Origin: Felis catus
Lineage: Eukaryota
Direction: 5' to 3'
DNA length: 64,000 bases
Assembly (NCBI RefSeq): GCF_018350175.1
Contig: NC_058368.1
Span: 50,655,815-50,719,814, forward strand
Shown here: piece after piece, positions 2,000 through 60,067 of the stretch
How the letters are laid out: each line of letters begins with the position of its first letter
Position numbering within the stretch: position 1 is the stretch's first letter
Notes under the pieces: model-generated
The model's input: the letters and a program-made list of their open reading frames with translations, nothing else
What the model was told of the DNA's origin: nothing
Databases searched by the model: none
Made by a program: the position numbers and the translations under genes

Positions 2000-2650
2000 T
2001 GCAATCTCAAATAGATACTGTGGTGTCAATGATGGATGAGCAGAACAGAGAATTAGCTATATAGAGGACAAACTTATGGAGAATAATGAAGCAGAAAAAA
2101 AGAGGGACATTAAGGCAAAAGAGCATGATTTAAGAATTAGAGAAATCAGTGACTCATGAAAAAGGAACAACATCAGAATCATAGGGGTTGAGAGAGAGAA
2201 ATAGGGGTAGAAGGGTTATGTGAACAAATCATGGCAAAAAACTTCCCTAACCTGGGGAAAGACACAGACATCAAAATCCAGGAAGCACAGAGGACTCCCA
2301 TTAGATTCAACAAAAACTGACCATCAACAAGGCATATCATAGTCAAATTCACAAAATACTCAGGCAAGGAGAGAATCATGAAAGCAGCAAGGGAAAATAA
2401 GTCCTTAACCTACAAGGGAAGACAGATCAGGTTTTCAGCAGACCTATCCACAGAAACTTGCAGTCAGAAAGGGGTGGCAGGATATATTCAATGTGCTGAA
2501 TCAGAAAAATATGCAGCCAAGAATTCTTTATCCATCAAGGCTGTCATTCAAAATAAAAGGAGAGATAAAAAGTTTCCCAGACAAACAAAAATAAAGGAGT
2601 TTGTAACGACTAAACCAGCCCTGCAAGAAATTTTAAGGGGGACTCTCTGA
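2000..2650 (+). pseudogene. L1 ORF1p remnant (partial coiled coil, RRM, CTD; N-terminus missing)
   Basis: Peptides MKAARENKSLTYKGRQIRFSADLSTET and KEFVTTKPALQEILRGTL; contains stops and frameshifts. Confidence 0.92.
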
Positions 2651-2693
2651 GGGGAGAAAATACATATTTATATTTTTTATATATTTATACATT

Positions 2694-2738
2694 TATATAT
2701 ATATATACACCACATATTTATATATATAAATAAAATAC

Positions 2739-2771
<33 letters not shown>

Positions 2772-2775
2772 ATAT

Positions 2776-2808
<33 letters not shown>

Positions 2809-2836
2809 GTATTTTATTTATATATATAAATATGTG

Positions 2837-2853
<17 letters not shown>
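2694..2853. repeat. Perfect 160-bp palindrome of TA/TG/CA microsatellite plus non-repetitive AT-rich arms
   Basis: Base-by-base reverse-complement symmetry about 2773/2774. Confidence 0.95.
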
Positions 2854-2872
<19 letters not shown>

Positions 2873-2937
2873 AAAGCAACAAAGATTGGAAAGGACCAGA
2901 GAATACCACCAGAAACTCCAACTCTACAAGCAACATA

Positions 2938-5900
2938 ATGGCAATAAATTCATATCTTTCAGTACTCACTCTAAACGTCAATGGACTCAATGCTCCAATC
3001 AAAAGACATAGGGTAACATAATGGATGAGAAAACAAGATCCATCTATATGCTGTTTACAAGAGACACACTTTAGACCTAAAGACACCTTAAGGTTGAAAA
3101 TAAGGGGATGGAGAACCATCTATCATGTTAATGGCCAACAAAAGAAAGTCAGAATAGCCATACTTATATCAGACAATCTAGACTTTAAAATAAATACTCT
3201 ATCAAGAGATGAAGAAGGGCATTATATCATAATTAAGGGACTATCCACCAAGAAGACCTAACAATTGTAAACATTTATGTGCCAAATGTCAACACACCCA
3301 AATATATAAATCAATCACAAACATAAAGAAACTCATCGATAGTAATACCGTAATAGTAGAAGACTTCAACACCCCGTTCACAGCAATGGACAGATCATCT
3401 AATCAAAAAATCAACAAGGAAACAATGGCTTTGAATGACACATTGGACCAGATGGACTTAACAGATATATTCAGAACATTTCATCCTAAAGCAGCATAAT
3501 ATACATTCTTCTCCAGTGCACATGGAACATTCTCCAGAATAGACCACATACTGGGACACAAACCAGCCCTCAACAAGTAGAAAAAGATCGAGATCATACC
3601 ATGCATATTTTCAGACCACAATTCTATGAAACTCAAAATCAACCACAAGAAAAAATTTGGAAAGGTAACAAATACTTGGAGACTAAAGACCATCCTACTA
3701 AAAAATGAATGGGCCAACCAGGGAGTTAAAGAGGAAATTAAAAAGTGTATGGAAGCCAATGAAAATGATAACACCACAACCCAAAACCTCTTGGATGCAG
3801 CAAAGGTGGCCATAAGAGGAAAGTAGATAGCAATCCAGGCCTTACTAAAGAAGGAAGAAAGATCTCAGATACACAACCTAACCTTACGCCTTAAACAGCT
3901 GGAAAAAGAACAGCAAATAAAACCCAAAACCAGCAGAAGACCGGAAATAATAAAGATTAGAGCAGAAATTAATGCTATTGAAACCAAAAAAACAGTAGAA
4001 CAGATCGATGAAACCAGAAGCTGGCTATTTGAAAGAATTAACAAAATTGATAAACCACTAGCCAGTTTGATCAAAAAGAAAAGGGAAAGGACCCATATAA
4101 ATAAAATCAAGAATGAAGAGGAGAAATCACAACCAACACGGCAGAAATAAAAACAGTAAGAGAATATTATGAGCAATTATATGCCAATAATATGGGCAAT
4201 CTGGAGGCAGTGGACAAATTCCTAGAAACATGTACACTATCTTAACTGAAACAGGAAGAAATAGAAAATTTGAACAGACCCATAACCAGTAAAGATACCA
4301 AATTAGTAATCAAAAATCTCCCAAAAAACAAGAGTCCAGGGCCAGATGGCTTTCCACAGAATTCTACCAAACATTTAAGGAAGAGCTAACACCTATTCTC
4401 TTGAAGCTGTTCCAAAAAATAGAAGTGGAAGGAAAACTTCCCAACTCTTTCTATGAGGCCAGCATTACCTTGATTCCAAAACCAGACAGAGACCCCACTA
4501 AAAAGGAGAACTATAGACCAATTTCCCTGATGAACATGGATGCAAAAATCATCAACAAGATAATAGCCAACCAGATCCAACAATACATTAAAAAAATTAT
4601 TCACCACAACCAAGTCCAATTTATACCTGGGATGCAGGTCTGGTTCAATATTTGCAAAACGATTAACATGATTCATCACATCAATAAAAGAAAGGACAAG
4701 AACCTTATGATCCTCTCAATAGATGCAGAGACAGCATTCGACAAAATACAGCATCCTTTCTTGATAAAAACCCTCAAGAAAGTAGGGATAGAAGGGGATA
4801 GAAGGATCATACTTCAAGATCATAAAAGCCATGTATGAATGACCCAATGCTAGCATCATCCTCAATGGGGAAAAACTGAGAGGTTTCCCCCTAAGGTCAG
4901 GAACAAGATAGGGATATCCACCCTCACCACTGTTATTCAACATAGTATTGGAAGTCTTGGCTTCTGCAATCAGACAACACAAGGAAATAAAAGGCATCCA
5001 AATTGGCCAGGAGGAGGTCAAACTTTCACTCTCTTCAGATGACATGATACTCTATATGGAAAACCCAAAAGATTCCACCAAAAAACTGCTAGATTCATGA
5101 ATTCAGCAAAGTTGCAGGATATAAAATCAATGCAAAGAAATCAGTTGCATTCCTATCACCAACAATGAAGCAACAGAAAGAGAAATCAAGGAATCAATCG
5201 TATTTAAAATTACACCAAAACCCATAAAATACCTAGGAATAAATCTAACCAAAGAGGTGAAAAACCTATACACTGATAACTATAGAAAGCTTATTAAAGA
5301 AACTGAAGAAGACATACAAAAAAAGGAAAAAGATTCCATGCTCCTGGATAGGAAGAACAAATACTGTTAAAATGTCGATACTACCCAAAGCAATCTACAT
5401 ATTTAATGCAATCCCTATCAAAATAACACCAGCATTCTTTACAGAGCTAGAACAAATAATCCTAAAATTTGTATGGAAGCAGAAAAGACCCTGAATAGCC
5501 AAAGCAATCTTGAAAAAGAAAACCAAAGCAGGAGGGATCACAATCCCAGACTTCAAGCTATACTACAAAACTGTAATCATCAAGACAGTATGGTACTGGC
5601 ACAAGAACAGACACTCAGATCAATGGAACAAAACAGAGAACCCAGAAATGGACCCACAAATGTATGGCCAACTAATCTTTGACAAAGCAGGAAAGAATAT
5701 CCAATGGAATAGAGACAGTCTCTTCAGCAAGTCATGCTGGGAAAACTGGACAATGACATGCAGAAGAATGCAGAACCTGGACCACTTTCTTACACCATAC
5801 ACAAAAATAAACTCAAAATGGATGAAAGACCTCAATGTAAGACAGGAAGCCATCCAAATCCTCGAGGAGAAAGCAGCCAAAAACCCCTCTGATCTTGGCT

Positions 5901-6601
5901 GCAGCAACTTCCTACTCAACACGTCTCCAGAGGCAAGGGAAACAAAAGCAAAACTGAACTACTGGGACCTCATCAAAATAAAAATCCTCTGCACAGCGAA
6001 GGAAACAATCAGCAAAACTAAAAGCCAACCGACAGAATGGGAGAAGATATTTGCAAACGACATATCAGATGAAGGGTTGGTATCCAAAATATATAAAGAA
6101 CTTATCAAACTCAACACCCAAAAAACAAATAATCCAGTGAAGAAATGGCAAAAGACATGAATAGACACTTCTCCAAAGAAGACATCCAGATTGCCAACTG
6201 ACACATGAAAAAATGCTCAACATCACTCATCATCAGGGAAATGCAAATCAAAACCACCATGAGATACCGCCTCACACGTGTCAGAATGGCTAACGTTAAC
6301 AACTCAGGCAACAACAGATGTTGGTGAGGATGCGGAGAAAGAGGATCTCTTTTGCATTGTTGGTGGGAATGCAAGCTGGTGCAGCCACTCTGGAAAACAG
6401 TATGGAGGTTCCTCAAAAAACTAAAAATAGAACTACCCTATGACCCAGCAATTGCACTACTAGGTATTTATCCAAGGGATACAGGTGTGCTGTTTCAAAG
6501 GGACACGTGCACCCCAATGTTTATAGCAGCACTATCAACAGTAGCCAAAGTATGGAAAGAGCCCAAAAGTCCATCGATGGATGAATGGATAAAGAAGATG
6601 T

Positions 6602-15153: not shown

Positions 15154-15509
15154 TGTATTAGCTCAGGTTCCTATAACAGAATAATATAGTCTGTGTGGCT
15201 TACACAACATTTCTCACAGTTCTAGAGACTAGGAAGTCCAAGATCAAGGTGGCTGCAGATCTAGTGTCTGGTAAGAGCTCTCTTCCTGGCTTGGGGATGG
15301 CATCTCCTCATAGTATCCTCACCTGATGGAGAATAGACAGAGTCAATCCAAGCAGTTTTGTGTCTTTACAAGGGTACTCCTCTCACTCCTGAGAACTCCC
15401 CTCTTCTGATCTGATTACCTCTGAAAGGCCCCACCTCCTAATACCCTCATACCTGGGGTTAGGATTCCAACATGAATGGGGGGTGGGGGCATAAATATTG
15501 TCCACAGCA
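15154..15509 (-). mobile_element. MaLR solo LTR (MLT1A0-like)
   Basis: TG..CA ends; tctcacagttctagagactaggaagtccaagatcaaggt, aaaggccccacctcctaatacc. Confidence 0.88.
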
Positions 15510-23739: not shown

Positions 23740-23959
23740 GGGGTGCCTGAGTGGCTCAGTCAGTTGAGCTTCTGACTTCGGCTCAGGTCGTGATCTCAGC
23801 TCATGAGTTCGATCCCCATATTGGGTTGTGTGTTAACAGCTCGGAGACTGGAGCCTGCTTCAGACTCAGTCTCCATGTCTCTCTCTGCCCCTCCCCTGCC
23901 CATGCACTGTCTCTCTCTTTCTCTCAAAAATACGTAAACATTAAAAAAAAAATTAAAAA
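23740..23959 (+). mobile_element. Can-SINE
   Basis: SINE body; TSD agagcaacta. Confidence 0.96.
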
Positions 23960-24559: not shown

Positions 24560-25120
24560 GGAGAGGAATTGCATTCAGCAGTGAGTATAGAATTGCAAAA
24601 ACAGACAAAAACACACCTTAGAAATATTCAAAGATTTATTTCCTTCCAGTGGGAAATCTGGACATAGGCTTGTAGAGCACTGCCATTGTATCCTTGGAAA
24701 TCTAACTTCTTTCTGGTCCACTAGCTTTAGCAAAGGATTGTCATTCAAATTCAAGGTCATTTAAGTCATCTGGACTCTGAGGCTCCAGTCCCTGTCTTTA
24801 TTTCAGGCTGAAAGTAGGGGAAGTGACAACTAGGTCCATAGTAACTGAATCTTCCCCATTTTAAAATTTTTCCCAGTGGGTGTTGTATGGAAACCAATTT
24901 GACGATAAATTATATTAAATTTTTTTTTTCCCAGAAGGTCGAGCCAACTTTTTTATTCATGTCTCACTGATCAGATCTTGGGTTATTTAACCACCCTATC
25001 TGCAAAGGAGTCTAGGAACGTCATTTTTTTTTTTTTTTTTTTTTATTGAGCTCATTGCTGTCCTCCCCCAACAAGCCAGAGTAAAGAAGTGGCAAAGTGA
25101 CAAGAAACTAGCAGTGCTCA
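24560..25120 (-). mobile_element. Old MaLR LTR (MLT1J/K/L-like), hosting a micro-L1
   Basis: ttcccagaagg..tctcactgatcaga..accctatctgcaaaggagtctaggaa. Confidence 0.5.
24877..24919 (+). mobile_element. About 40-bp felid L1 3' terminus
   Basis: tgggtgttgtatggaaaccaatttgacgataaat matches the L1 end at 41595-41630; flanked by aaa(t)ncccag on both sides. Confidence 0.85.
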
Positions 25121-32320: not shown

Positions 32321-33644
32321 GCATGTTTGCATATAGCTTTCTGAATTAGCATCTTCATTTTCTTTGGGTAAATACCCAGTAGTTTAATTACTGGATCCTA
32401 TGGTGATTCTGTTTTTAATTTTTTGAGGAACCTCCATAGTGTTATCCACAGTGGGTGCACCAGTTTGCATTCCCACCAACAGTGCACAAGGGTTCCCTTT
32501 TCTTCACCTCCTCACCAACACTTGTTGTTTCGTGTGTTTGATTTTAGCCATTTTGACAGGTGTGAGGTGATATCTTGTGGTTTTGATTTGTATTTGCCTG
32601 ATGATGAGTGATTTTGAGCATCTTATCATGTGTCTGTTGGTCATCTGCATGCCTTCTTTGGAGAAATGTCTTCATGTCCTCTGCTCGTGTCTTAATTGGA
32701 TTATTATTATTATTATTATTATTATTTGGTTTTCAGTTGTATACGATCTTTATGTATTTTGGAACTAACCCTTTTTTCGGATACGTCACCTGCAAATATC
32801 TTCTTCTGTTCAGTAACTTGTCTTTTAGTTGTTTTTTTTATTGTTTTCCTTCACTGTGTAGAGCTTTTTATTTTGATGTAGTCTCAATAGCTTATTTTTG
32901 CTTTTGTTTCCTTTGCCTCAGGAGACATATCTGGAAAAACGTTGCTACAGCTGATGTCAGAGAAATTACTGCCTGTGCTCTCTTCTAGAATTTTTATGGT
33001 TTCAGTTTTCCCATTGAGGTCTTTAATCTATTTGAGTCTATTTTTGTGTGTGGTGTAAAAAAGTGGTCCAGTTTCATTGTTTTACATGTAGCTCTATAAT
33101 GTTCCCAACACTATTTGTTAAAGAGGTTGTCTTTTTCCTATTGCATACTTTTGCCTCCCTCTTCAAGATTAATTGACCATATAATCACGGGGTTATTTCT
33201 GAGCTCTGTATTCTGTTCCATTGATCTATGTGTCTGTTTTTGTGTCTGTACCACACTGTTTTGATTACCACAGCTGTGTACTATATCTTGAAACATGGGA
33301 TTGTGATGCTTTCAGCTTTGCTTTTCTTTTTCAAGATTGCTTTAGCTATTCTGGTCCTTTGTGATTCCATACAAATTTTAGGATTATTTCTCCTAGCTCT
33401 GTGAAAAATGTTGGTATTTTGATCAGGATTGCATTAAATCTACAGACTGCTTTGGATAGTATGGACATTTTAATAATATTTGTTCCTCCAAACTATGAAC
33501 CTGGAATATCCTTCTTTGTTTCTGTCATCTTCGATTACTTTCATCAATGCACAGTTTTCAGAGTATAGGTCTTTCACCCCCTGGTTAAGTTTATTCCTAG
33601 GTATATTATTATTTTTGGTACAATTGTAAATGAAATTATTTTCT

Positions 33645-33756
33645 TTTTTTTTTTTTAAGATTTTTTAAATGTAATCTCTACACCCTATGTAGGCTTGAAC
33701 TCAACTCTGAAATCAAGAGTTGCATGCTCTATCATGTGAGCCAGCCAGGTGTCCCA
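33645..33756 (-). mobile_element. Short old Can-SINE inside the L1
   Basis: ttttaagatttttt..aatctctacaccc..gagccagccaggtgtccc; attattttctt/attgttttctt TSD. Confidence 0.85.
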
Positions 33757-36700
33757 GGATTGTTTTCTTAATTTGTCTTTCTGCTAGTTCATTATTAGTG
33801 TATGGAAGTGCAACAAATTTCTCTATATTGACTTTGTATCCTGTGACTTTACTGAATCCATTTATCACTTCTAGTAGTTTTTGGTAAAGTGTTTAGCCTT
33901 TCTATGTATAGTATACTGTCATCTGCAAGTAGTGAAAGTTGTATTTCTTCCTTACCAGTTTGTATGCCTTTTATTTCTTTTTCTTTTCTGATTTCTTTTC
34001 TTTTCTGATTTCTTTTCTTGTCTGATTGAATGTGTACAACTTCCAGTACTATGTTAAATAAAAGTGATAAGAGTAGGTATCTTTTTTTTCTGATCTTAGA
34101 GGAAAAACTCTCAGTTTTTCATTATTGAGTATGATGTTAGCTATGGGTTTTTCATATATGGCTTTCTTATGTTGACTGATGTATGTTCCCTCTAAACCTA
34201 CTTTGTTGAGGGTTTTTATCATGAATGGATGTTTTACTTTGTCAAATGCTTTTTCTGCACCTCCTGAAATGATCACATGGCTTTTATCCTTTCTTTTGTT
34301 GATGTGATATATTATATTGATTGATTTGTGACTATTGAACTACCTTACAACCCATGAATGAATCCCATTTGATCATGGCAACTGATTTTTTAATATATTG
34401 TTGGATTTGGTTTGCTAATATTTTGTTGAAGACGTTTGCATCTATGTTCATCAGAGATATTGGCTTGTACTTTTCTCTTTCTGTAATGTATTTATATGGT
34501 TTTATATCAGGGTAATGCTCACCTTATACATGAATTTGGAAGCTTTCCTTTCTTTTCTATCTTTTGAAATAGTTTGAGAATAGGTATTAAATCTTTAAAC
34601 GTTTGGTAGAATTCACCTGTGAAGGCATCTGGTCTTGGACTTTTGTTTGTTGGATGTTTTCTTTTGATTATGATTCAATTTCATTACTGGTAATTCCTCT
34701 GTTCAAATTTGTCTGCTTCTTCCTTATTCAGTTTTGGGAGGTTATATATTTTAGGACTGATCCATTTCTTCTAGGTTGTCCAATTTGTTGGCATATAATT
34801 TTTCATAATATTCTCATAATCCTTTGTATTCTGTGATGTTGGTTGTTATTTCTACTCTTTCATTTCTGATTTTTATTTGAGTCCTCTCTCTCTTTTTGAT
34901 TCATCTAGCTAAATTTATCTATTTTGTAGATCTTTTCAAAGAATCAGCTTCTGGGTTCTTTGAACTATTGTATTGGTTTCAATTACTTTTTTTTGTTTCA
35001 TTTTTTAAAATTTCTGCTCTAATCTTACTCATTCCCTTCCTTCTACTGGTTTTGGATTTTGCTAGCTTTTCTTTCTCCAGCTCCTTTAGGTGTAATGTTA
35101 TGTTGTGTATTTGATATTTTTCTTGCTTCTTGAGGTGGACCTGTATTGCTTTACATTTTTTTCTTAGAACAGCTTTTGGTTCATCCCAGAGATTTTTGAC
35201 TGCTGTGTTTTCATTTTCATTTGTCTCCATACATTTCTGACTTCCTCTTTGATTTCTTGGTTGACCAATACATTGTTTTGTAGCTTATTAAACCTCCATA
35301 TGTGTTCTTTCCAGATTTTTTTTTCCTGTGGCTGATTTTTAGTTGCATAGCATTGTAATTGGAAAAATGCATGGTATGACTTCAATCTTTTTTTAACTTG
35401 TTGAGACTTGTTTTGTGGGCTAATATGGGACATATTCTGGAGTATGTTCCATGTGTACTGGAAAAAATTGTGCACTCTGCTGTTTGAGGATGGGATATTC
35501 CAAATATATTTGTTAAATCTATCTGGTCCAATGTGTCATTCAAAGCCACTGTTTGCTTATTGATTTTCTGTGTGGATAATATATCCATTGGTCTACCATG
35601 GGTGTCAAAGTCCCCTACTATCATTGTATTACTATTAATTAGTTCATTTATGTTGGTTCATAGCTTCTTTATGTATTTGTGTGCTTTCATGTTGGGTGCA
35701 TACATATTTACAATTGCGTCCTCTTGTTGAATTGTTTCCTCTTTGATCACATAGTGGCCTTCTTTGTCTCTTGTTAGTCTTTGTTTTAAAGCCCATTTTG
35801 TTCCATATAACTGTTGCTACCCTGGCTTTTTTTTCCACTTCCACTAGCATGATAAATACTTTTCCATCCCTTCACTTTCAATCTGCATGTGTCTTTAGGT
35901 CTGAAATGAGTCTCATGTAGGCAGTCTATAGATGGGTCTTGCTTTTTTATCCATTCCATCATGCTATGTCTTTGATTGGAGTGTTTATATTCTGAGTAAT
36001 TATTTGATAGGTATGTAGTTATTGCCATTTTGTTACTTATTTTGTGGTTTTTGTTTTTGGGGGTTTTTATTTGTTTGTTTTTTGTTTTTTTGTAGTTCTT
36101 CTCTGTTCTTTTCTTTGGTTCTCTTCTCTTATGGTTTGCTGGTTTTCCTTAGTGATATAGTTGGATTCCTTTCTCTTTATTTATTACTTATCTATTAGTA
36201 GTTTTAAATTTGTGATTACCATTGGATTTATATATAACATTTTATGAATATAGCAGTTTTATTAGGCTGATGGTCACTTATGTTTGAACCTTTTTGTTAG
36301 TCCTCTTCCCCCCACATTTTAGGATTGTGGTGACATACTTTACAGTCTTTGATTTTGTGATTCCCTTAGTTGATTTTTATAGATACACTTAATTCTATTG
36401 CTTTTGTGCTTCTACATTTCTTACTCCTACCAATGGTCTTTCCTTTCCACCTGAAGAGCCACCTCCAACATTTCTTATAGGGCTGATTTAGTGCTCATGA
36501 AATTCTTTAACTTTTGTTCATCTGAGAAGCTATTTATCTCTTTTTCTATTTTGAATAATAGCCTTGCTGGATAGAGTATACTTGGTTGCAGGTTTTTTCT
36601 TTCAGCACTTTGAATATATCATGACTCTCTCTCCTGGCCAGCCAACGTTCTGCTGAAAAATCAGCTGATATCTTTATGGGGTTTCCCTTGTATGTAACTG

Positions 36701-37121
36701 GTTTTTGTTTCTCTTGTTGCTTTTGAAATTCTCTCTTTATCACTACTTTTTGCCATTATAATTACTTTGTTTCTTGTCAGCCTCCTTGGGTTAATTTTGT
36801 TGGTTGCTCTTTGTGCCTCCTGATTCTGATTTTCTGTTTCCTTCCCAGATTCATAAAGTTTTTAGCCATTATATATTTAAATAAGTTTTCTGCTCCCTTT
36901 TCTCTCTTTTCTCCTTCTAGGATTCTCATAATCCAAATGTCATTACGCTTGATGGTATCAATGAATTTCATTTTTTTTAATTTCATTTTTTTTAATTCTC
37001 ATTTTTTTAATTACTTTTTTCTCTCACCTGTTCCACTTGATTACTTTCCATCACTCTAACCTCCAGGTTTCTTATTCTTTCTTCTTCTTCTACTAGTCTA
37101 CTATTTATTCCCTCTAGTGTG

Positions 37122-37346: not shown

Positions 37347-38947
37347 TCCCTCTAGTGTGTTTTTAATTTCAGTTATTGAGCTCTTCATCTCTAGTTCTTT
37401 TGTTTGTTTTCTCTTTGTTAAGGGTATCACTGATGTCCTCTATTCTTTTCTCAAGTCCAGTCACTACCTGTATGTCCATTACTTTAAATTTTCTATCAGG
37501 AAGTTTATTTGTCTCCATTTCATTTAGGTCTCTTGCTATGATTTTTCCTGGTTTTACATTTGGGACATATTCCTCTGTCTCTTCAATTTGTCTAACTCCC
37601 TTTGTCTCTGTTTTTTAGGAAAGACAGCTATGTCTCCTGCATTGAGAATAGTGGCCTTATGAAGAAGAGGTCCCATAGTGCCCACTGTGTAGTGTCCCTT
37701 GTTCACCAGAACATGACGCTTTAGTGGTGTTTCCTATGTGTTGCATATGCCCTACTGTTGTGGTTGAGCCACTTTTGTGGTTCATCTTGTACAGCCATCT
37801 ACAATGGCTCTCTTTGCCTCTTGTGGACAGAGTTTGATCCCTGTGTTATTAGTGGGCCAGTCTGGGGCTGCCTTGGGCTGGAGTTGAATCAGACAAAGTA
37901 TTTGCCAGAGATACAGTGGCAGTGAAGTACAGGGTGCTTTTTCTGTGTTGTCCCCTGAGAAGCTTTTTTTAGTGAGCTGGGCCTGTAGTCAGACTGGATG
38001 TTGCCCCTAGTCCACCTCTGGGGCTGTAGTTGGACTGGTGTGTGTGGTTATCATTCTCTCTCCCCATGGAAGGAGTCACTTTGAAGTGGTGCTGACCCCT
38101 GTCGGAGCTGCTTGCACACTGGCAAGAGTTGTGGAACTACTATGGGTGGGCTCTGGCCAAGGTTGTATTTGAGGGGGCAGGTCCACAGGAGAACACAGGA
38201 GTGGGATGCACAGTGCCAGCAGAAGAACTGATATTAATCTTGGTCCTTTCCACCCTGAGTACTGCTTGGTTCTTTTCTCCAGCTACTGGAAGTTCCTCAC
38301 ATACATGAGCTTCTTAGGGCTCAACTGAACATTGAAAGGGACCATCTGTAAGTCTCAGAGCTGACTCTCTGTGCTGCTTTCTCCTCTACGGTACTCTGTA
38401 CTGCACACACTATTTGCTTTGGCTTCCTGAAACTCCCAGTTTGGGCTCCTCAACTTAGAATGGCCTCCAGGTTCAGCCTGGGTTTTCCTTCCGTAAGCCA
38501 TGGTCTGGAAACTTTCTCCATGTAGTGAGTTGGGGAAAAGCATAGGGCTTACCTCATGTGCTTCCCATCTTTTGGGGATCATCATTTTTCATTGCCTGCT
38601 ATCCTGGATCTTGAGTATCACTGATTCATATGCTTTGTTTTAGTTGTTTTAGGCAGGAAAGTAAACCCGGACCATGTTATTCTATCTTGAGCAAAAGTGC
38701 AAGTCTCAGTGGTTTTTTTAACTTAATATTATAGAATAAGCTTTTCTCTGTGTCATTAAAAATTGCTCAAAAACATTTAAAATTTATTTATAATATTTTG
38801 GTGTGCAGATGTAGCATAGTTGTAAAAATTTTTGCTATTATGAATAATATTTCCATGGACTTTTTTATTCTACCTTTATTGGCATAGAATTATGTAGTTA
38901 GATTATTTTCATAGAAATGGAGTAACTTAGTCCAAAAGATTGAGCAT

Positions 38948-39390
38948 TGTATTAGTTTTCTAGACTGCTTTAACAAAGTACCACAAATTGCATGGCTTAA
39001 ATAATATATTTTGTTGCTTCAAAACAGAGGCTAGAAGTCTGAAATCAAGGTTTATGCAAGATTGGCTTTTTTCTGAGGGATATGAAGAAAGATGTTTTCC
39101 ATGTTTTCCTACTTTCTGGTGATTTGCTATAAATCTTTGGCATTCCTTGGTTGATTTCTGTCTTCTGACCTTCATATAACATCTTTCTTAAGTGGGTGTC
39201 TGTGTCCAAATTTCCCCTTTTATAAACATATCAGTCATATTGATCTAAGAGTCTACCCTCCTCCATATGATCTTATCTTAACTAATTACCTCTGCACTGA
39301 CTCTACTTTCAAGTAAGCTCACATTTTGAGGAACTGGGAATTAGGGTTTCAATATAGGTATTTTGGTGGGCCACAATTCAACCCATAACA
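38948..39390 (-). mobile_element. MaLR solo LTR (MLT1C-like), inserted in an old L1ME fragment
   Basis: tgtattagttttctag..cacaattcaacccataaca; 5-bp TSD agcat/aacat. Confidence 0.9.
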
Positions 39391-40807
39391 AACATGCTGA
39401 AACTCTGTTATGTTACTTCCAAATTGAGTCTAGAAGGGTTATAACAAGAGATAGGTTGTATATTAAATACACCTTTTGTACAAGGATTTAAAGAACGTGC
39501 AAAAAAAATTAAAGAATTAAGTAATTTTTCACCATTTAAAGTACTGTAAATCAGCAGTTTATTGTTATATGTACTCATTCTTCTGTAACTATTTTATAAG
39601 CTTGAAAATATATTATAACACTTTGCCATTCCCCTTCTCTGAATTTGTTAGTCTCCCTATGGTTTCACTCTGAATTAGAAATATGTTTTCCTTTTCAATT
39701 TTCTACTGACTTTTCTTTCTAAGTGAACCTTTGTTTAGCTTACTTAATCTGTCTCTTTTTTCCAACCTGCTTTTATAGGTAAATGTTTAAAAAGCATGTG
39801 TGCCTCACCTAAATGAACTCTATCAGCAAATGTAGTGTGCAGTTTTCCTAAATTGAGTTGAACTCTATCACAAAATGTTATTTTTAAGAGTATTTGTCCT
39901 AATGTCTCTAAAATATTAGCAAACAAGGGAAGTAAGATTAAGTAAAATAACTACATATTCACTGAATATCTGACTCACAGATAGGTGTACAGGGTCCCAG
40001 TATATCCTGACCTGGAATTTAGAAATATCTGAATTTGCACAATTTCCTGGTGAGAAGAGCCACCAAGAACTGATTTACATAAAGATTTGTAACTGATATG
40101 AATGAAAGTGACAGTCCTGGTACTGGTGATGGGAACATAAGGGACAGGGATGACAAAATGGTAACATTCTCAGATAAGGTCTTCACCTTTCCTCTTTTAC
40201 TTTAACCCTCCCAATAAATTGTCAGTTTATTAATGCTAGCATCATCCTATTACTGAGACTAACGAAAATTGGGTTACCAAGGTAACGAAAAATAACTCAG
40301 ATTATTCATTCAAAAAAATTTAATATCTACTCTATACTCAGGACTGTGCTAGGTATTAAATACACAGTGGTGAAAAAAAAAGGCCTGGATTTCCCTGAAT
40401 CTTAAAATCCAGTCAAGAGAGAAGCAATATGAAAAAAGAAAAAAAAAACAGAAATATATTACTAATTATTAATGAAAATAATAATGATTTATATGAAAAC
40501 AGAAGCAACTTAAATCAGATTGGGAGATATGGTAAGGTCATCTTAAGAAGTAAACTGTAAGCTAATACCTGAGGAATGAGTAGGCATGTGCCAGGCACAA
40601 GTGGAAGGAAGGATCTTTCAGATAGAGAAAAAGAAGGGATGAACATACTGATGCAAGAAAGAGCTTAATGCATTCAAATAATTAAAAGACATCATAGCTA
40701 GAATATAATGATCAGGATTGATGAGATTGGGTTGGTGAAAACAGCAGGGATATGATAATGTAGAACATTGTTAGGGCATGTTTACAATTTTGGGTTTCAT
40801 TGGGTAA

Positions 40808-41784
40808 AGTGAAAACATATGGTATCTGTCTTTCTCTGTATGACTTATTTCACTTAGCATAACACTCTCCAGTTCCATCCACGTTGCTACAAAAGGCCAT
40901 ATTTCATTCTTCCTCCTTGCCACGTAGTATTCCATTGTGTATATAAACCACAATTTATCCATTCATCAGTTGATGGACATTTAGGCTCTTTCCATAATTT
41001 GGCTATTGTTGAAAGTGCTGCTATAAACATTGGGGTAAAAGTACCCCTATGCATCAGCACTCCTGTATCCCTTGGGTAAATTCCTAGCAGTGCTACTGCT
41101 GGGTCATGGGGTAGATCTATTTTTACTTTGTTGAGGAACCTCCACACTGTTTTCCAGAGTGGCTGCACCAGTTTGCATTCCCCCCAACACTGCAAGAGGG
41201 CTCATGTTTCTCCACATCCTCTCCAGCATCTATAGTCTCCTGATTTGTTCATTTTAGCCACTCTGACTGGCATGAGGTGGTATCTCAGGGTAGTGAATGA
41301 GAAAGAATGAAATATGGCCTTTTGTAGCAACGTGGATGGAACTGGAGAGTGTTATGTTAAGTGAAATAAATCATACAGAGAAAGACAGATACAATATGTT
41401 TTCACTCTTATGTGGATCCTGAGAAACTTAACAGAAGACCATGGGGGAGGGGAAGGAAAAAAAAAAAAGAGAGGGAGAGAGCCAAACCATAAGAGACTCT
41501 TAAAAACTGAGAATAAACTGAGGGTTGATGGGGGGTGGGAGGGAGGGGAGGGTGGGTGATGGGCATTGATGAGGGCACCTATTGGGATGAGCACTGGGTG
41601 TTGTATGGAAACCAATTTGACAATAAATTTCATATTAAAAAAAAACTGAGAACAAACTGAGGGTTGATGGGGGGTGGGAGGGAAGGAAGGGTGGATGATG
41701 GGTATTGAAGAGGGGACCTGTTGGGATGAGCACTGGGTGTTGTATAGAAACCAATTTAAAAATAAATTTCATATTAAAAAAAAA
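40808..41784 (+). mobile_element. 5'-inverted (twin-primed) truncated felid L1 with a duplicated 3' end
   Basis: Antisense ORF2 C-terminus 40808-41294 ([16 protein letters not shown]), sense 3' end 41296-41784; TSD tgggtaaagt at 40801-40810 and 42021-42030. Confidence 0.93.
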
Positions 41785-54899: not shown

Positions 54900-55260
54900 C
54901 CTGCACTTTACAACCCAGCCAAGATTGTTCTCACTTCAGTCCGTTGTCCTCCATTCTCTCTGGAAGGCTCTCTTCTCCAACAAAGTCACATGACTCATTT
55001 CTTCATTTCTTTTAATTTACCTAAATTTTATGCTCTCAAGTAACCTGATGTCGCTACATATATACTTTAGTGGTCCTGTCAGTCTATCACCTTAGCTGAA
55101 TGTGTTGCTATTTGACATGATATTTTTATTTTGGACTGCCCCGACTAGAATATCAATTTCCTAAGGGCCAGACTTTGTCATTTTGTTCCTTATTTCCTTG
55201 ATGCCCAAAACAGTGCTTGGCACAAAGTTGGCATAATAAATATTCTCGCCTAAACAAATA
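54900..55260 (+). mobile_element. L2 3' end
   Basis: actagaatatcaatttcctaagggccagactttgtc..aacagtgcttggcaca. Confidence 0.75.
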
Positions 55261-55603
55261 AATCTTATTTATTGTATAGGCAGTATTTATTAAATGAAAA
55301 AAATCCTATTTTTAACAGATCAGTATATTTTTAAACAACTGGATCTTGAATATTAGTATTGTTTGCATGTTCCTTCTCAAGTGTATCTATGCTCAGGGAA
55401 GGAAGCATGTTCTTAAATACATTAGGCCTACTGTGGAAATCAGGAACTTGAGATTCACCATCTTTTTTAAGACCCATCTAGTACCACCCTCAGTCCCCCA
55501 CATGCTACACTGCCTTTGGCACTTCCAAGATTTAAAGAGTGGAAAAGAGAGCTATGGTACAGAAAACACTTTATTTAATTGGAGCATTGACCTGTCATTG
55601 ATA

Positions 55604-55631
55604 AAGGCATACCTTGGAGATATTGCAGGTT
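55604..55631 (-). mobile_element. Isolated duplicate of a Tigger1 terminus (28 bp)
   Basis: TA followed by aaggcataccttggagatattgcaggtt, matching 56329-56356. Confidence 0.85.
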
Positions 55632-56321
55632 TACTGTCAGTCACTGGCATTCCTTGGCTAATCTGTGCCTTCATCTTCATATGGCATTCTCCCTATGTGT
55701 GTCTGGGTCCAAATCCCCCCTTTTATAAGGACATCAGTAATATTAACTTAGGGGCCCACCCTACTTCATATGACCTCATCTTAACTAGTCACTTCTGGAA
55801 CAACCCCATTTTCAAGTTCACATTCTTTTTTTTTTTTTTTTAATGTTTATTTATTTTTGAGAGAGAAACAGAGTGCAAGCTGGGAAGAGAAAGAGAGAGA
55901 GGGAGACTTCATATGACCTCATCTTAACTAGTCACTTCTGGAACAACTCCATTTTCAAGTTCACATTCTTTTTTTTTTTTTAATGTTTATTTATTTTTGA
56001 GAGAGAAACAGAGTACAAGCTGGGAAGAGAAAGAGAGAGAGGGAGACACAGAATCCAAAGCAGTCTTCAGGCTCTGAGCTGTTAGCACAGAGCCTGACAC
56101 GGGGTTCAAACTCATGAACTGTAAGATTATGACCTGAGCTGAAGTCAGATGCCCAACCAACTGAGCCAACCGGGCACCCCATCAAATTCACATTCTTGAA
56201 GTACTGGAGATTAAGGCTTGAACACATGGATTTTGGTAGGACACAATTCAACTTATAACAAACATATTTAAACTCCTTTATATTACTTCCAAATTGATTC
56301 TAGAAGGATTATAACAACAGA
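55628..56321 (-). mobile_element. Partial MLT1C-like LTR plus flank, a copy of about 39119-39451, later hit by a SINE and a tandem duplication
   Basis: Shares the LTR end and 61 bp of flank with 39391-39451 (52/61 identical, ungapped). Confidence 0.85.
55968..56180 (-). mobile_element. Can-SINE (tail portion duplicated at 55825-55907)
   Basis: SINE body; ttcacattctt on both flanks. Confidence 0.95.
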
Positions 56322-56328
56322 CAAATGA

Positions 56329-58771
56329 TAGGCATACCTCAGAGATATTGCAGGTTCAGTTCCAGACTACTGCAATAGTGTGAATATTAGAATAAAGCAA
56401 GTGAAATGAATTTTGTGTTTCCCAGTACATATAAAACTTATGTTTCCACTATACTGTAGTCTAGTAAGTGTACAACAACATTATGTCTAAAAACATAAAG
56501 TATATACCTCAATTTAAAAATATTTTATTGCTAAAAAATACTGATCATTATCAGAGCTTTCAGCAAATTGTAATCTTTTTGCTGGTGGAGAACTTGCCTC
56601 ACTGTTGATGGCTGCTGAAGGTTGGGGGGCTGCAGCAATTTCTTTAAAACAACAATGAGGTTTTCTGCATTGATTGACTCTTTCACCAAAAATCTCTCTG
56701 TAGCACAGGATGCTGTTTGATAGCATTTCACCCACAGTAGAACTTTGGAAATTGGATTCAGTCTTCTCAAAATCTGCTGCTGCTTTATTAACCAAGTTTA
56801 TGTACTACCCTAAACCCTTTGTTGTCATTGCAGCAATCTTTAAAGACAGCATCTTCACCAGGAGTAGATTCCATCTCAGCACTTTCTTTGCTTATCCATA
56901 AGAAGCAACTCCTCATCCATTAATGTTTTATCATGAGATTGCAGAAATTCAGCCCCATCTTCAGGCTCCACTTCTAGTTCTAGTTCTCCTACTGTTTCCA
57001 CCACATTTGCATTTACTTCCTTCACTGAAGTCTTGAACCTCTCGAAGTCATCCCTGAGGGTTGGAATCAACTTCTTCCAAACTCCTGCCAATGTTGATAT
57101 CTTGGTCTCTTCCCATGAATCACAAGTGTTCTTAATAGTATCCAGAATGGTAAACCCTTTCCAGAAGGTTTTCAATTTATTTTACCCAGATCCATTAGAG
57201 AAATCACTATCTACAGCAGCTCTACCTTATGAAATGTACTTCTTCAATTGTAGGACTTGAAAGTTGAAATTATTCCTTGATCCATGGCTATGGAGTGGGT
57301 GTTGTATTACTAGACATGAAAACAACATTCATCTCATATATCTCCATCAGATGTCTTGGGTTACCAGGTACCCTGTCAATGAGCAGTAATATTTTGAAAG
57401 GAGTCTTTTTCTTCTGAGCAGTAGGTCTCAATAGTGGGCTTAAAATATTCAGTAAACCATTTTGTAAACAGATGTGCTATCATCCATGTTTTGTTGTTCC
57501 ATTTATAGAGTATAAGCAGCGTATATTGAGCATAATTTTTAAAGGCCTTGGGATTTGTGGAATGGTAAATAAGCACCGACTTCAATTTAAAGTCTCTAGC
57601 TACATTAGCCCCTAACAAGATACGTAGCCTGTCCTTTGAAGCTTTGATGCTAGGCATTGTCTTTTTCTCTCTAGCTAGGAAAGTCATAGATGGCATCTTT
57701 TTCTAATAGAAGACTGTTTTGTCTATGTTGAAAATGTGTTGTTTAGTGTAGCCACCTTCATTAATTCTCAGCCAGATCTTCTGGATAACTTGCTGTGACT
57801 TCCACGTCAGCATTTGCTGCTTCACCCTGCACTTTGATATTATGGACATGGCTTCTTTCCTTAAATCTCATGAGCCAATCTCAGCTAAACTCACTTTCCT
57901 TCTGCAGCTTCCTCACCTCTCTTAGCCTTCATAGAATTGAAGAGAGTTAGGGTCTTGCTCCAGATTAGGCTTTGGCTTAAGGTAAATCCAGACCACTAAA
58001 AATTTCTCTATATCAGCAATAAGGCTGTTTTGCTTTCTTACCATTCTTGTGTTTACTGGAGTAGCACTTTGAATTTCCTTAAAGAACTTTTCCTTTGCAG
58101 TCACAACTTGGCTAACTGCCTCAAGAGGCCTAGCTTTCAGCCTAACTTGGCTTTCTGCATGTCTCCCTCACTAAGCTAACTCATTTCTAACTTTTGATTT
58201 ATAGTGAGAACTCTGCTACTCTTCCTTTCACTGGAACACTTAGAGGCCACTGTAGGGTTATTAATGAGCCTAATTTTAGGACTGTTGTATCTCTGGGAAT
58301 AGGGAGGTTTGGGGAGGAGGGACGAGCATACAGCTGACCAGTGGAGCAGTCAGAACACACATGACATTTATCGATTAAGTTCAACATCTTGTATGGGTGC
58401 TCTGGGTGGTGCCCCAAAACAATTGCCATAATAACATCAGAGATCCTTGATCACAGATCACCATAACAATTATAGTAATTATTAAAAGGTTTGAAATGTC
58501 GTGAGAATTACCAAAATGTGACTCACAGACACGAAGCAAACAGTGTTAGAAAAATGGCATCCATAGACTTGATTGATGCAGAGTTGTCACAAATCTTCAG
58601 TCTGAAAAGAAAAGGAAAGAAAGAAAAGAAAAGAAAAGAAAAGAAAAGAAAAGAAAAGAAAAGAGAAAAGAAAAAAGAAAAGAAAAGAAAAGAAGAGAAG
58701 AGAAAAGAAAAAAGAAAAGAAAAGAAAAGAGAAAAGAAAAGAAAAGAAAAGAAAAGAAAAGAAAAGAAAAG

Positions 58772-58802
<31 letters not shown>

Positions 58803-58823
58803 GAATAAAATGAGGTATGCCTA
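56329..58823 (-). mobile_element. Full-length Tigger1 DNA transposon with a decayed pogo-type transposase
   Basis: TIRs taggcatacctc / gaggtatgccta followed by TA; peptides [52 protein letters not shown]. Confidence 0.96.
58604..58804. repeat. (GAAAA)n pentanucleotide expansion in the Tigger1 subterminal region
   Basis: Read directly from the sequence. Confidence 0.97.
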
Positions 58824-60067
58824 TACTTTGTGGGCTGGGTAGATGTTTAAAACCGTTTCTTAGGAATGGTTATGGTTTCTTCAGACATCACTCTTTCATT
58901 GCTAGGGATCTATTTGCTGCAAAGTCTCCCCTGGACACCTCCTTGTCATTCCCAGCCTCTGGCTTCCTTGGTCCACTCCTCACAGAGTATCATCTAAATT
59001 AGGATCCTATTATCCTTCTAGGCAGCCTTCTTGAACCCTCCTCTTAATCACCTTTGCTCAGCCATCAGAATAAATAGCTACAGTCTCACTTTTAAGCTTT
59101 ATCAAGCTTGGGACAAGTTTTCTTGCTTCAGACTCCAAATGACACAAGTAAAACTGTTTGACCACCCTCCTTGAAGCACTGTCCAAATCCACACCTGGGG
59201 AAAACGTGAAATATATTCTATATTTCTGAAAATTCCTGGTGTCTTGCTTTCTGTAGCCTTTCTGCTCTAAGTTCCATTTGTATTTGCCCTTGAACTGCAC
59301 CTAACTGATTGAAAGAGTCGACTCATACCAAAGCTTTACTAAACCATGTAGACTTTATTCCAGATTTTGTAGGGGTGGAAGAGACAATATTGAAATCACA
59401 CTGCTGACAGTAAATAACTCAGATCACATTGTGCACACAAATGCTTTTTTATCATGCAAAGTATTTCAGGTTCCTCTGACTCCTGCTCCCTAATTTGCCT
59501 ACACAAGATCAAAATTTCCCAGCACAACAAAGGCCATTTCTATAAAAAGGATTCATCCTCAAAAGAAAGCAATCATGTTTATAAATATCAAAGTTTCTTT
59601 CTTGCATAAATGCGTATGTGTGTGTGTGTGTGCATTTGCCTTGACAGAAAGCACTACATGATGGATTTCCTTGCATTTTAATTTGAGTAATGCTGAATGT
59701 GCAAAAAAGTTAAGTTACTCACAAAGTCATTATTACTTTAAATATTTATTATGTGCATGTGTATACGCCCACATACGAAATCGGAAGCAGATGCCTCCCT
59801 CAGCTCCCACTATGTCTCAGATATGACCGTGTTAGCAGTTTGCTGTGTTACCAGGCTTCTTAGGCTAATGTAGACATTTGCATGTATGCATATAAACATG
59901 TGTAGTTTTTATACAAATATAATCATGTGAACCACATTGGTCTGCAGTGTTACATTTTCTCCCTTATTAATATATCATCAACATCTTTCTGGGCAGTAGG
60001 TACACCTGTTTGGTTTTTTTTGTTTTTGTTTTTGTTTTTGTTTTTGTTTTTTTATGGCTCCAGAGTA

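Follow-up and report, generated by a model that had tools for sequence, protein, structure and literature searches.

A probable single repair event behind the doubled end of an old Tigger1-type transposon in the cat

Within the window (the whole 64,000-nucleotide stretch of Felis catus DNA analysed here), a 327-bp donor stretch at 39125-39451 has a second copy, which lies 16.5-16.9 kb further downstream and within the 3′ end of a decayed Tigger1-type transposon. The copied DNA comprises 266 bp of a long terminal repeat (LTR) and the adjoining 61 bp of its flank. At the downstream locus, the parts follow one another in the order TA, 28-bp transposon terminus, the 327-bp copy in the same orientation as its donor, a 7-nt filler, the terminus again, the rest of the element and a second TA (Table 1). 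We consider it probable, at roughly 0.7, that this arrangement is a templated insertion which arose in a single repair event at the Tigger1 3′ end. An earlier sequence-only reading of the region had proposed a single copying from a donor in cis into the Tigger1 end, and both the flank match and the anatomy of the terminus support that proposal. We suggest that the copied stretch is a neutral scar, and no function is suggested for it.

Table 1 Features of the donor locus and of the doubled Tigger1 terminus (positions in the window)
Feature	Position	Strand	Remarks
Additional MaLR-type LTRs (loose controls)	1-386 and 15155-15500		
Donor solo LTR, MaLR/MLT1 type, 443 bp	38948-39390	-	Reverse alignment to the LTR at 1-386
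Microhomology zones beside the donor segment	39121-39124 and 39452-39455		
Copied donor segment	39125-39451	+	266 bp LTR and 61 bp flank
TA target site (55602-55603) and outer Tigger1 3′ terminus (55604-55631, 28 bp)	55602-55631	-	
Copied LTR piece, first part	55632-55825	+	146/193 aligned columns, to donor 39125-39325
Tandem duplication, about 140-143 bp (LTR part and SINE tail)	55763-56047	+	96.6% over 145 columns
SINE insertion	55826-56182	-	About 20 similar copies in the window; absent from the donor
Copied LTR piece, second part, to the LTR boundary	56196-56260	+	50/65 columns
Copied 61-bp flank of the donor LTR	56261-56321	+	52/61, ungapped
Filler at the exit junction, 7 nt	56322-56328	+	5/7 to the preceding 7 nt
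Full-length decayed Tigger1-type transposon	56329-58823	-	Matches to DDE_1 and TIGD1/Q13537
Inner copy of the Tigger1 3′ terminus	56329-56356		25/28 to the outer copy

The donor LTR and its copy

The donor shows the features of a solo LTR, namely TG...CA ends and a 5-bp target duplication that is preserved at four of five positions (38943-38947 and 39391-39395). Its strand was assigned by alignment to the LTR at 1-386, which carries a poly(A) signal on the plus strand, and we take its subfamily to be MLT1C. Since the upstream LTR is whole and has its target repeat, while the downstream one consists of the right-hand half only, the direction of copying runs from the former to the latter. The 61 bp precede the start of the LTR, because the donor lies on the minus strand, and at this place a purine tract would be expected to close MaLR internal sequence. 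Directly ahead of the LTR start, however, 10 and 12 of 20 nt are purines, which is no polypurine tract, so that an origin of the flank as the end of a MaLR internal region was ruled out; the sequence-only reading had itself named membership in an LTR/MaLR internal consensus as a finding that would speak against the copying. That reading had also seen an apparent short deletion common to both LTR copies, judged against an assumed consensus. As Repbase lists both MLT1C1 and MLT1C2 (PMC5753468), such a deletion could instead be a subfamily trait.

Part of the donor LTR (38992-39052) resembles the LTR's own flank at 39391-39451, 400 bp away, at 35 of 61 positions. The flank of the copy matches the same part at 32/61, a control LTR copy reaches at most 26, and an nhmmer search of the window gave E values of 0.7-2.6. 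This likeness may mark a small second templated patch.

A self-BLAST of the window recovered the LTR piece in two matches, 39138-39325 to 55645-55824 (74%) and 39319-39451 to 56188-56321 (81%), together with the doubled transposon terminus (55605-55631 to 56330-56356, 25/27), in keeping with the self-comparison that the sequence-only reading had recommended. Its claim that the flank was copied along with the LTR was likewise borne out. The 52 identities in the 61-bp flank lie on one diagonal (binomial p = 9e-20), and the runner-up position, with both strands of the window scanned, reaches only 35/61. Over 71 positions, the true diagonal gives 60 identities, compared with 17-26 on the adjacent diagonals. 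Within the window, a 24-letter motif taken from the flank is present at two places, a number that none of 100 shuffles reached. A metagenome scan with the flank motif gave no match, but a control scan with a motif from the LTR end gave nine, none of them an LTR copy, so that this collection contains too little mammalian DNA for the zero to carry weight. A plasmid blastn with the donor LTR and its flank was likewise without a match, none of seven matches to a two-anchor LTR pattern among prokaryote genomes was an LTR copy, and no look-alike of the donor stretch turned up among other DNA stretches that were compared.

Over the entire segment, donor and copy are identical in 248 of 319 aligned columns, corresponding to a K2P distance of 0.275 (bootstrap 0.21-0.35). 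Identity is evenly distributed along the alignment: all 14 windows of 40 columns contain 28-33 identities, the best 61-column window is unexceptional (permutation p = 0.62), and the LTR part (196/258) does not differ significantly from the flank (Fisher p = 0.13). With a K2P of about 0.31 and 5 gap openings, the LTR parts of donor and copy are closer to each other than either is to the two other LTRs in the window (0.38-0.44, up to 20 openings), a loose comparison given that these controls seem to belong to other subfamilies.

A search for the remnant of a larger duplication between the regions flanking donor and copy returned no matches. Of 19 diagonal clusters at offsets of 15.5-18 kb, 3 represent the present copy, and SINE or L1 segments account for the other 16. 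A surviving remnant of a larger segmental duplication was therefore rejected, there being no leftover matches between the flanks. A 46-bp match at a similar offset, between 24874-24919 and 41592-41639, was considered as a further duplication trace and reads instead as a short L1 tail. Assembly chimerism was ruled out as well, as a mis-join cannot yield copies that are only 78% identical. Furthermore, 20 of 24 sequencing runs from 10 studies hold a fraction of 0.80-0.86 of 202 words sampled from 54900-56900, so that the region exists in other individuals; one of the runs may be the source of the window, and word content speaks for the region and not for single junctions. Three runs from a second organism contain next to none of these words, which carries no weight as evidence.

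The copy itself was altered by later changes. It is interrupted by a SINE, presumably of a cat family, which is flanked by a 13-bp target duplication (55813-55825 and 56183-56195, 12/13). The tandem duplication that spans the LTR part and the SINE tail has a period of 140 and 2.0 copies, with 62/63 identities in the LTR part; it may be of recent origin, a polymorphism or an error of the assembly. Both the SINE and this duplication postdate the copying, because both are absent from the donor. The T tracts inside the insert belong to the later SINE, and the ends of the insert carry no poly(A/T) tail.

Several other repeats were observed in the window. At 41502-41784, an L1-like 3′ end is duplicated in tandem (139 bp, 128/139) and directly followed by a SINE. 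The sequence at 24874-24919 is apparently a very short, 5′-truncated insertion with a target repeat, a 46-bp tail that we take to be of L1. Two old L1-like elements (2193-6475 and 32364-36907) lie in inverted orientation about 30 kb apart and are 69-76% alike, consistent with independent insertions. Rfam gave one match in the window, the head of a SINE at 23745-23827.

The doubled terminus and its junctions

The transposon displays the features of a Tigger element, a pogo-type DDE transposase, short terminal inverted repeats (TIRs) and a TA target duplication. One of its six transposase fragments, in a minus-strand frame, matches Pfam DDE_1 (E = 2e-16). The best protein match is the human putative transposase Q13537 (75%), found alongside many TIGD1 proteins (106 of 144 candidates passed). 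As the transposase frames lie on the minus strand, the doubled end is the 3′ end of the element. The transposon measures 2495 bp, including a 202-bp simple repeat formed by a GAAAA expansion (58604-58805), compared with 2418 bp for the Tigger1 consensus; this expansion, like the SINE and the 140-bp tandem duplication, would have arrived after the copying.

A TA is found in register outside the outer end (55602-55603) and outside the far end (58824-58825), whereas the inner end has GA at this place. The real boundaries of the element are therefore 55604 and 58823, and the captured DNA lies inside it, 28 bp from its end, with those 28 bp doubled. The inner and far ends (56329 and 58823) agree in 13 terminal bases, the first among them. 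The outer end differs from both at its first base, which bears on the question of which end was templated by the donor.

At the entry junction, the last 4 element bases match the extant donor at 3 of 4 positions, a score that 5.2% of random nearby segments also reach, so that this match alone is not significant (chance 0.052). At the exit junction, the 4 bases that follow in the donor (39452-39455) are identical to the first 4 of the element, and donor 39450-39455 equals 56327-56332 at all 6 positions. The chance of the 4-base match is 0.006 per offset, but since it requires a 7-nt offset picked post hoc, its actual chance is several times higher. The 7-nt filler in between matches both the preceding 7 nt and donor 39445-39451 at 5 of 7 positions (background 0.023), compared with 4/7 to the outer flank of the element (background 0.10). 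Judged by these letters, the filler appears to be slightly better explained by local repetition of the 7 nt before it than by re-copying of the outer flank. A return by microhomology at the terminus would, moreover, need no loss of 2 bp and seems the slightly simpler of the two.

These junctions modify the sequence-only reading in several details. Its account of a template-switch repair at a transposon end stands as far as an old one-event copy from a cis donor is concerned. It had the strand return upstream and re-copy about 35 bp, flank included, a step that the filler does not favour and that is not required, because the filler matches the preceding 7 nt slightly better. Similarly, of the terminus and the few flanking bases that it saw as doubled, the 28-bp terminus holds (25/28), while the flanking bases could mostly have been supplied by the donor too. 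The 4-bp microhomology that it placed at the entry amounts to 3/4 against the real donor, the perfect match depending on an assumed consensus.

Age, mechanism and rival explanations

The element was compared with P0001, which we take to be close to the ancestral transposase. They are identical at 282 of 374 counted residues, for which a neutral simulation gives a K of about 0.14 (0.12-0.16 compatible); this value is biased downward, as 80 of 454 residues were dropped (unaligned or below 40% local identity), and it ignores CpG decay. Published median divergences of Tigger1 in other mammals are 0.115-0.175 (PMC8277862). Twice the element's own decay (2 x ~0.14 = 0.28) falls in the middle of the K2P interval between donor and copy, which suggests that the copying and the Tigger1 insertion are of about the same age.

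Under the single-event reading, a break or stalled synthesis would have exposed a 3′ end at a point 28 bp into the element. This free end would have annealed by a few bases to the LTR 16.5 kb upstream, and synthesis would have run for 327 bp, across the LTR boundary and into the flank. The strand would then have left the donor where its next 4 bases equal the first 4 of the element and rejoined at the terminus, whereby the terminal 28 bp would have been made twice. Synthesis-dependent strand annealing (SDSA), polymerase-theta-type joining and template switching at a fork cannot be told apart here. The break may have been made by the Tigger1 transposase, either as a nick at the end or as a gap under repair after excision. 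We infer this because the doubled piece has one edge exactly at the first bases of the element and because the ages agree; granted a single event, we give the transposase slightly better than even odds. The complete scenario, a transposase-triggered capture that took place while Tigger1 was active, drew on a template at a distance of 16.5 kb and gave rise to the second terminus copy, is accordingly more tentative, and we would put it somewhat short of an even chance. Among the Pack-TIRs of Tan et al., most single-copy cases arose after transposition and have breakpoints skewed inward, which counts against a role of the transposase (PMC8277862).

The main rival to a single event is a tandem duplication with a subsequent deletion, from which an identical sequence would result. 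In such a two-step course, a 16.5-kb tandem duplication would have joined element base 28 to LTR position 39125, and a 16.2-kb deletion in the second unit would have followed, either by microhomology or as an adjacent deletion that the transposase drove into the TA at the equivalent of donor 39452-39453. By sequence logic, this course predicts exactly the identical order of parts, and the donor TA directly after the copied flank is indeed the target that Tigger uses. It needs, however, two events within 28 bp of one end and has left nothing of the second unit, and its transposase version calls for an extra loss of 2 bp and a 7-nt filler, since the inner end has GA. We regard it as unlikely, although it is the strongest of the rivals.

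The remaining two explanations start from an independent LTR downstream. In one, homology-guided ectopic conversion from the donor replaced only the end of that LTR and the 61-bp flank, and the outer 28 bp were left behind by a second Tigger1. Nominal identity to the donor is higher in the flank than in the LTR part (85% against 76%), and the controls for independent copies are imperfect, both of which would suit conversion. Yet the difference between flank and LTR part is not significant, no step in identity is seen along the alignment, and, besides a deletion, another Tigger1 of like orientation would have to lie no more than 700 bp away, which makes conversion quite improbable. In the other, there was no copying at all: the 61 bp would belong to a repeat consensus, either the end of a MaLR internal region or an LTR subfamily with an extension, that was inserted independently at places 17 kb apart. 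The weak likeness of the flank to donor LTR 38992-39052 (35/61, E 0.7-2.6) could be read in this sense. The flank nevertheless starts with the donor's target repeat (4/5) and lacks the polypurine tract (10 and 12 purines in 20 nt), and this course of events would account neither for the two termini nor for the exit match; we give this explanation hardly any weight.

Significance and comparison with known systems

By itself, the locus is a single scar, one old case added to hundreds per genome. Published screens kept only young captures or captures free of transposable elements (TEs), and events that date from the time when DNA transposons were active in mammals were therefore beyond their reach. 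If the capture was indeed due to the transposase, the locus would be a fossil of an excision-type gap-filling route that is rare in surveys of young Pack-TIRs, and a hidden class of old terminus-doubling scars would be predicted at the ends of Tigger and MER2-group elements. Such scars would appear in repeat annotation as unrelated nested repeats. The expectation of the sequence-only reading that the event is invisible to plain repeat annotation agrees with our results. Should old cases cluster at termini and young ones not, this would indicate that, in early placental mammals, nearby DNA was taken up at breaks made by the transposase.

A search of the openly accessible literature, which for Pace et al. 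covered passages of the main text, found no report of this locus and no old Pack-Tigger1 with a doubled terminus.

The locus belongs to the repair-mediated (templated) duplications, a class that has already been described and that is, in the published accounts, mostly independent of transposition (PMC2671141, PMC8277862). Pace, Sen, Batzer and Feschotte (2009) reported 1,136 interrupted TEs in human, with 824 donors within 5 kb and 58 intrachromosomal donors beyond 5 kb, as well as 192 such duplications (RDs) in dog; the word transposase does not occur in the main text of that paper (PMC2671141). As in their cases, a TE is here interrupted by a short copy from the same chromosome, whose joints combine microhomology with a target duplication and filler, which is one junction class in their Table 1, and whose ends carry no poly(A). 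The length of 327 bp is within their range (the proximal maximum is 619 bp), and the pieces of their interrupted TEs are contiguous within +/-30 bp, as are those described here, which overlap by 28 bp (PMC2671141). Our donor, at 16.5-16.9 kb, lies outside the 5-kb cut-off of their confident set, an ad hoc limit and no feature of the mechanism, and the doubling of 28 bp exceeds the 4-21 nt of their inspected joints (PMC2671141). Their nested-TE filter would probably drop the present case, the insert being mostly LTR.

Tan et al. (2021) listed 370 Pack-TIRs with 21 Tigger1 rows; none of these 21 is from a carnivore, and the two cat rows of the list are MER20 and MER5B (PMC8277862). The present locus shares with Pack-TIRs the capture of cis DNA in a TIR element that keeps both of its ends and the outside TA, a captured length between 100 and 5000 bp, and a microhomology of a few bases (PMC8277862). 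It works like a Pack-TIR and falls outside the strict set, which demands a donor identity of at least 90% (here 78%, 248/319 columns) and a capture of non-TE DNA (here, 266 of 327 bp are LTR). Pack-TIRs have, furthermore, lost a median of 4.6% of the element and have inward breakpoints, whereas the element described here is broken 28 bp from its end, which is present twice (PMC8277862). Finally, gap filling after P-element excision and FoSTeS/MMBIR, as presented by Tan et al., likewise involve a template switch to nearby DNA at a DNA transposon. The excision scenario predicts larger deletions of the element than are seen here, where nothing was lost at the joint, but it also predicts breakpoints close to the termini, and this is where the breakpoint of the cat Tigger1 lies (PMC8277862).
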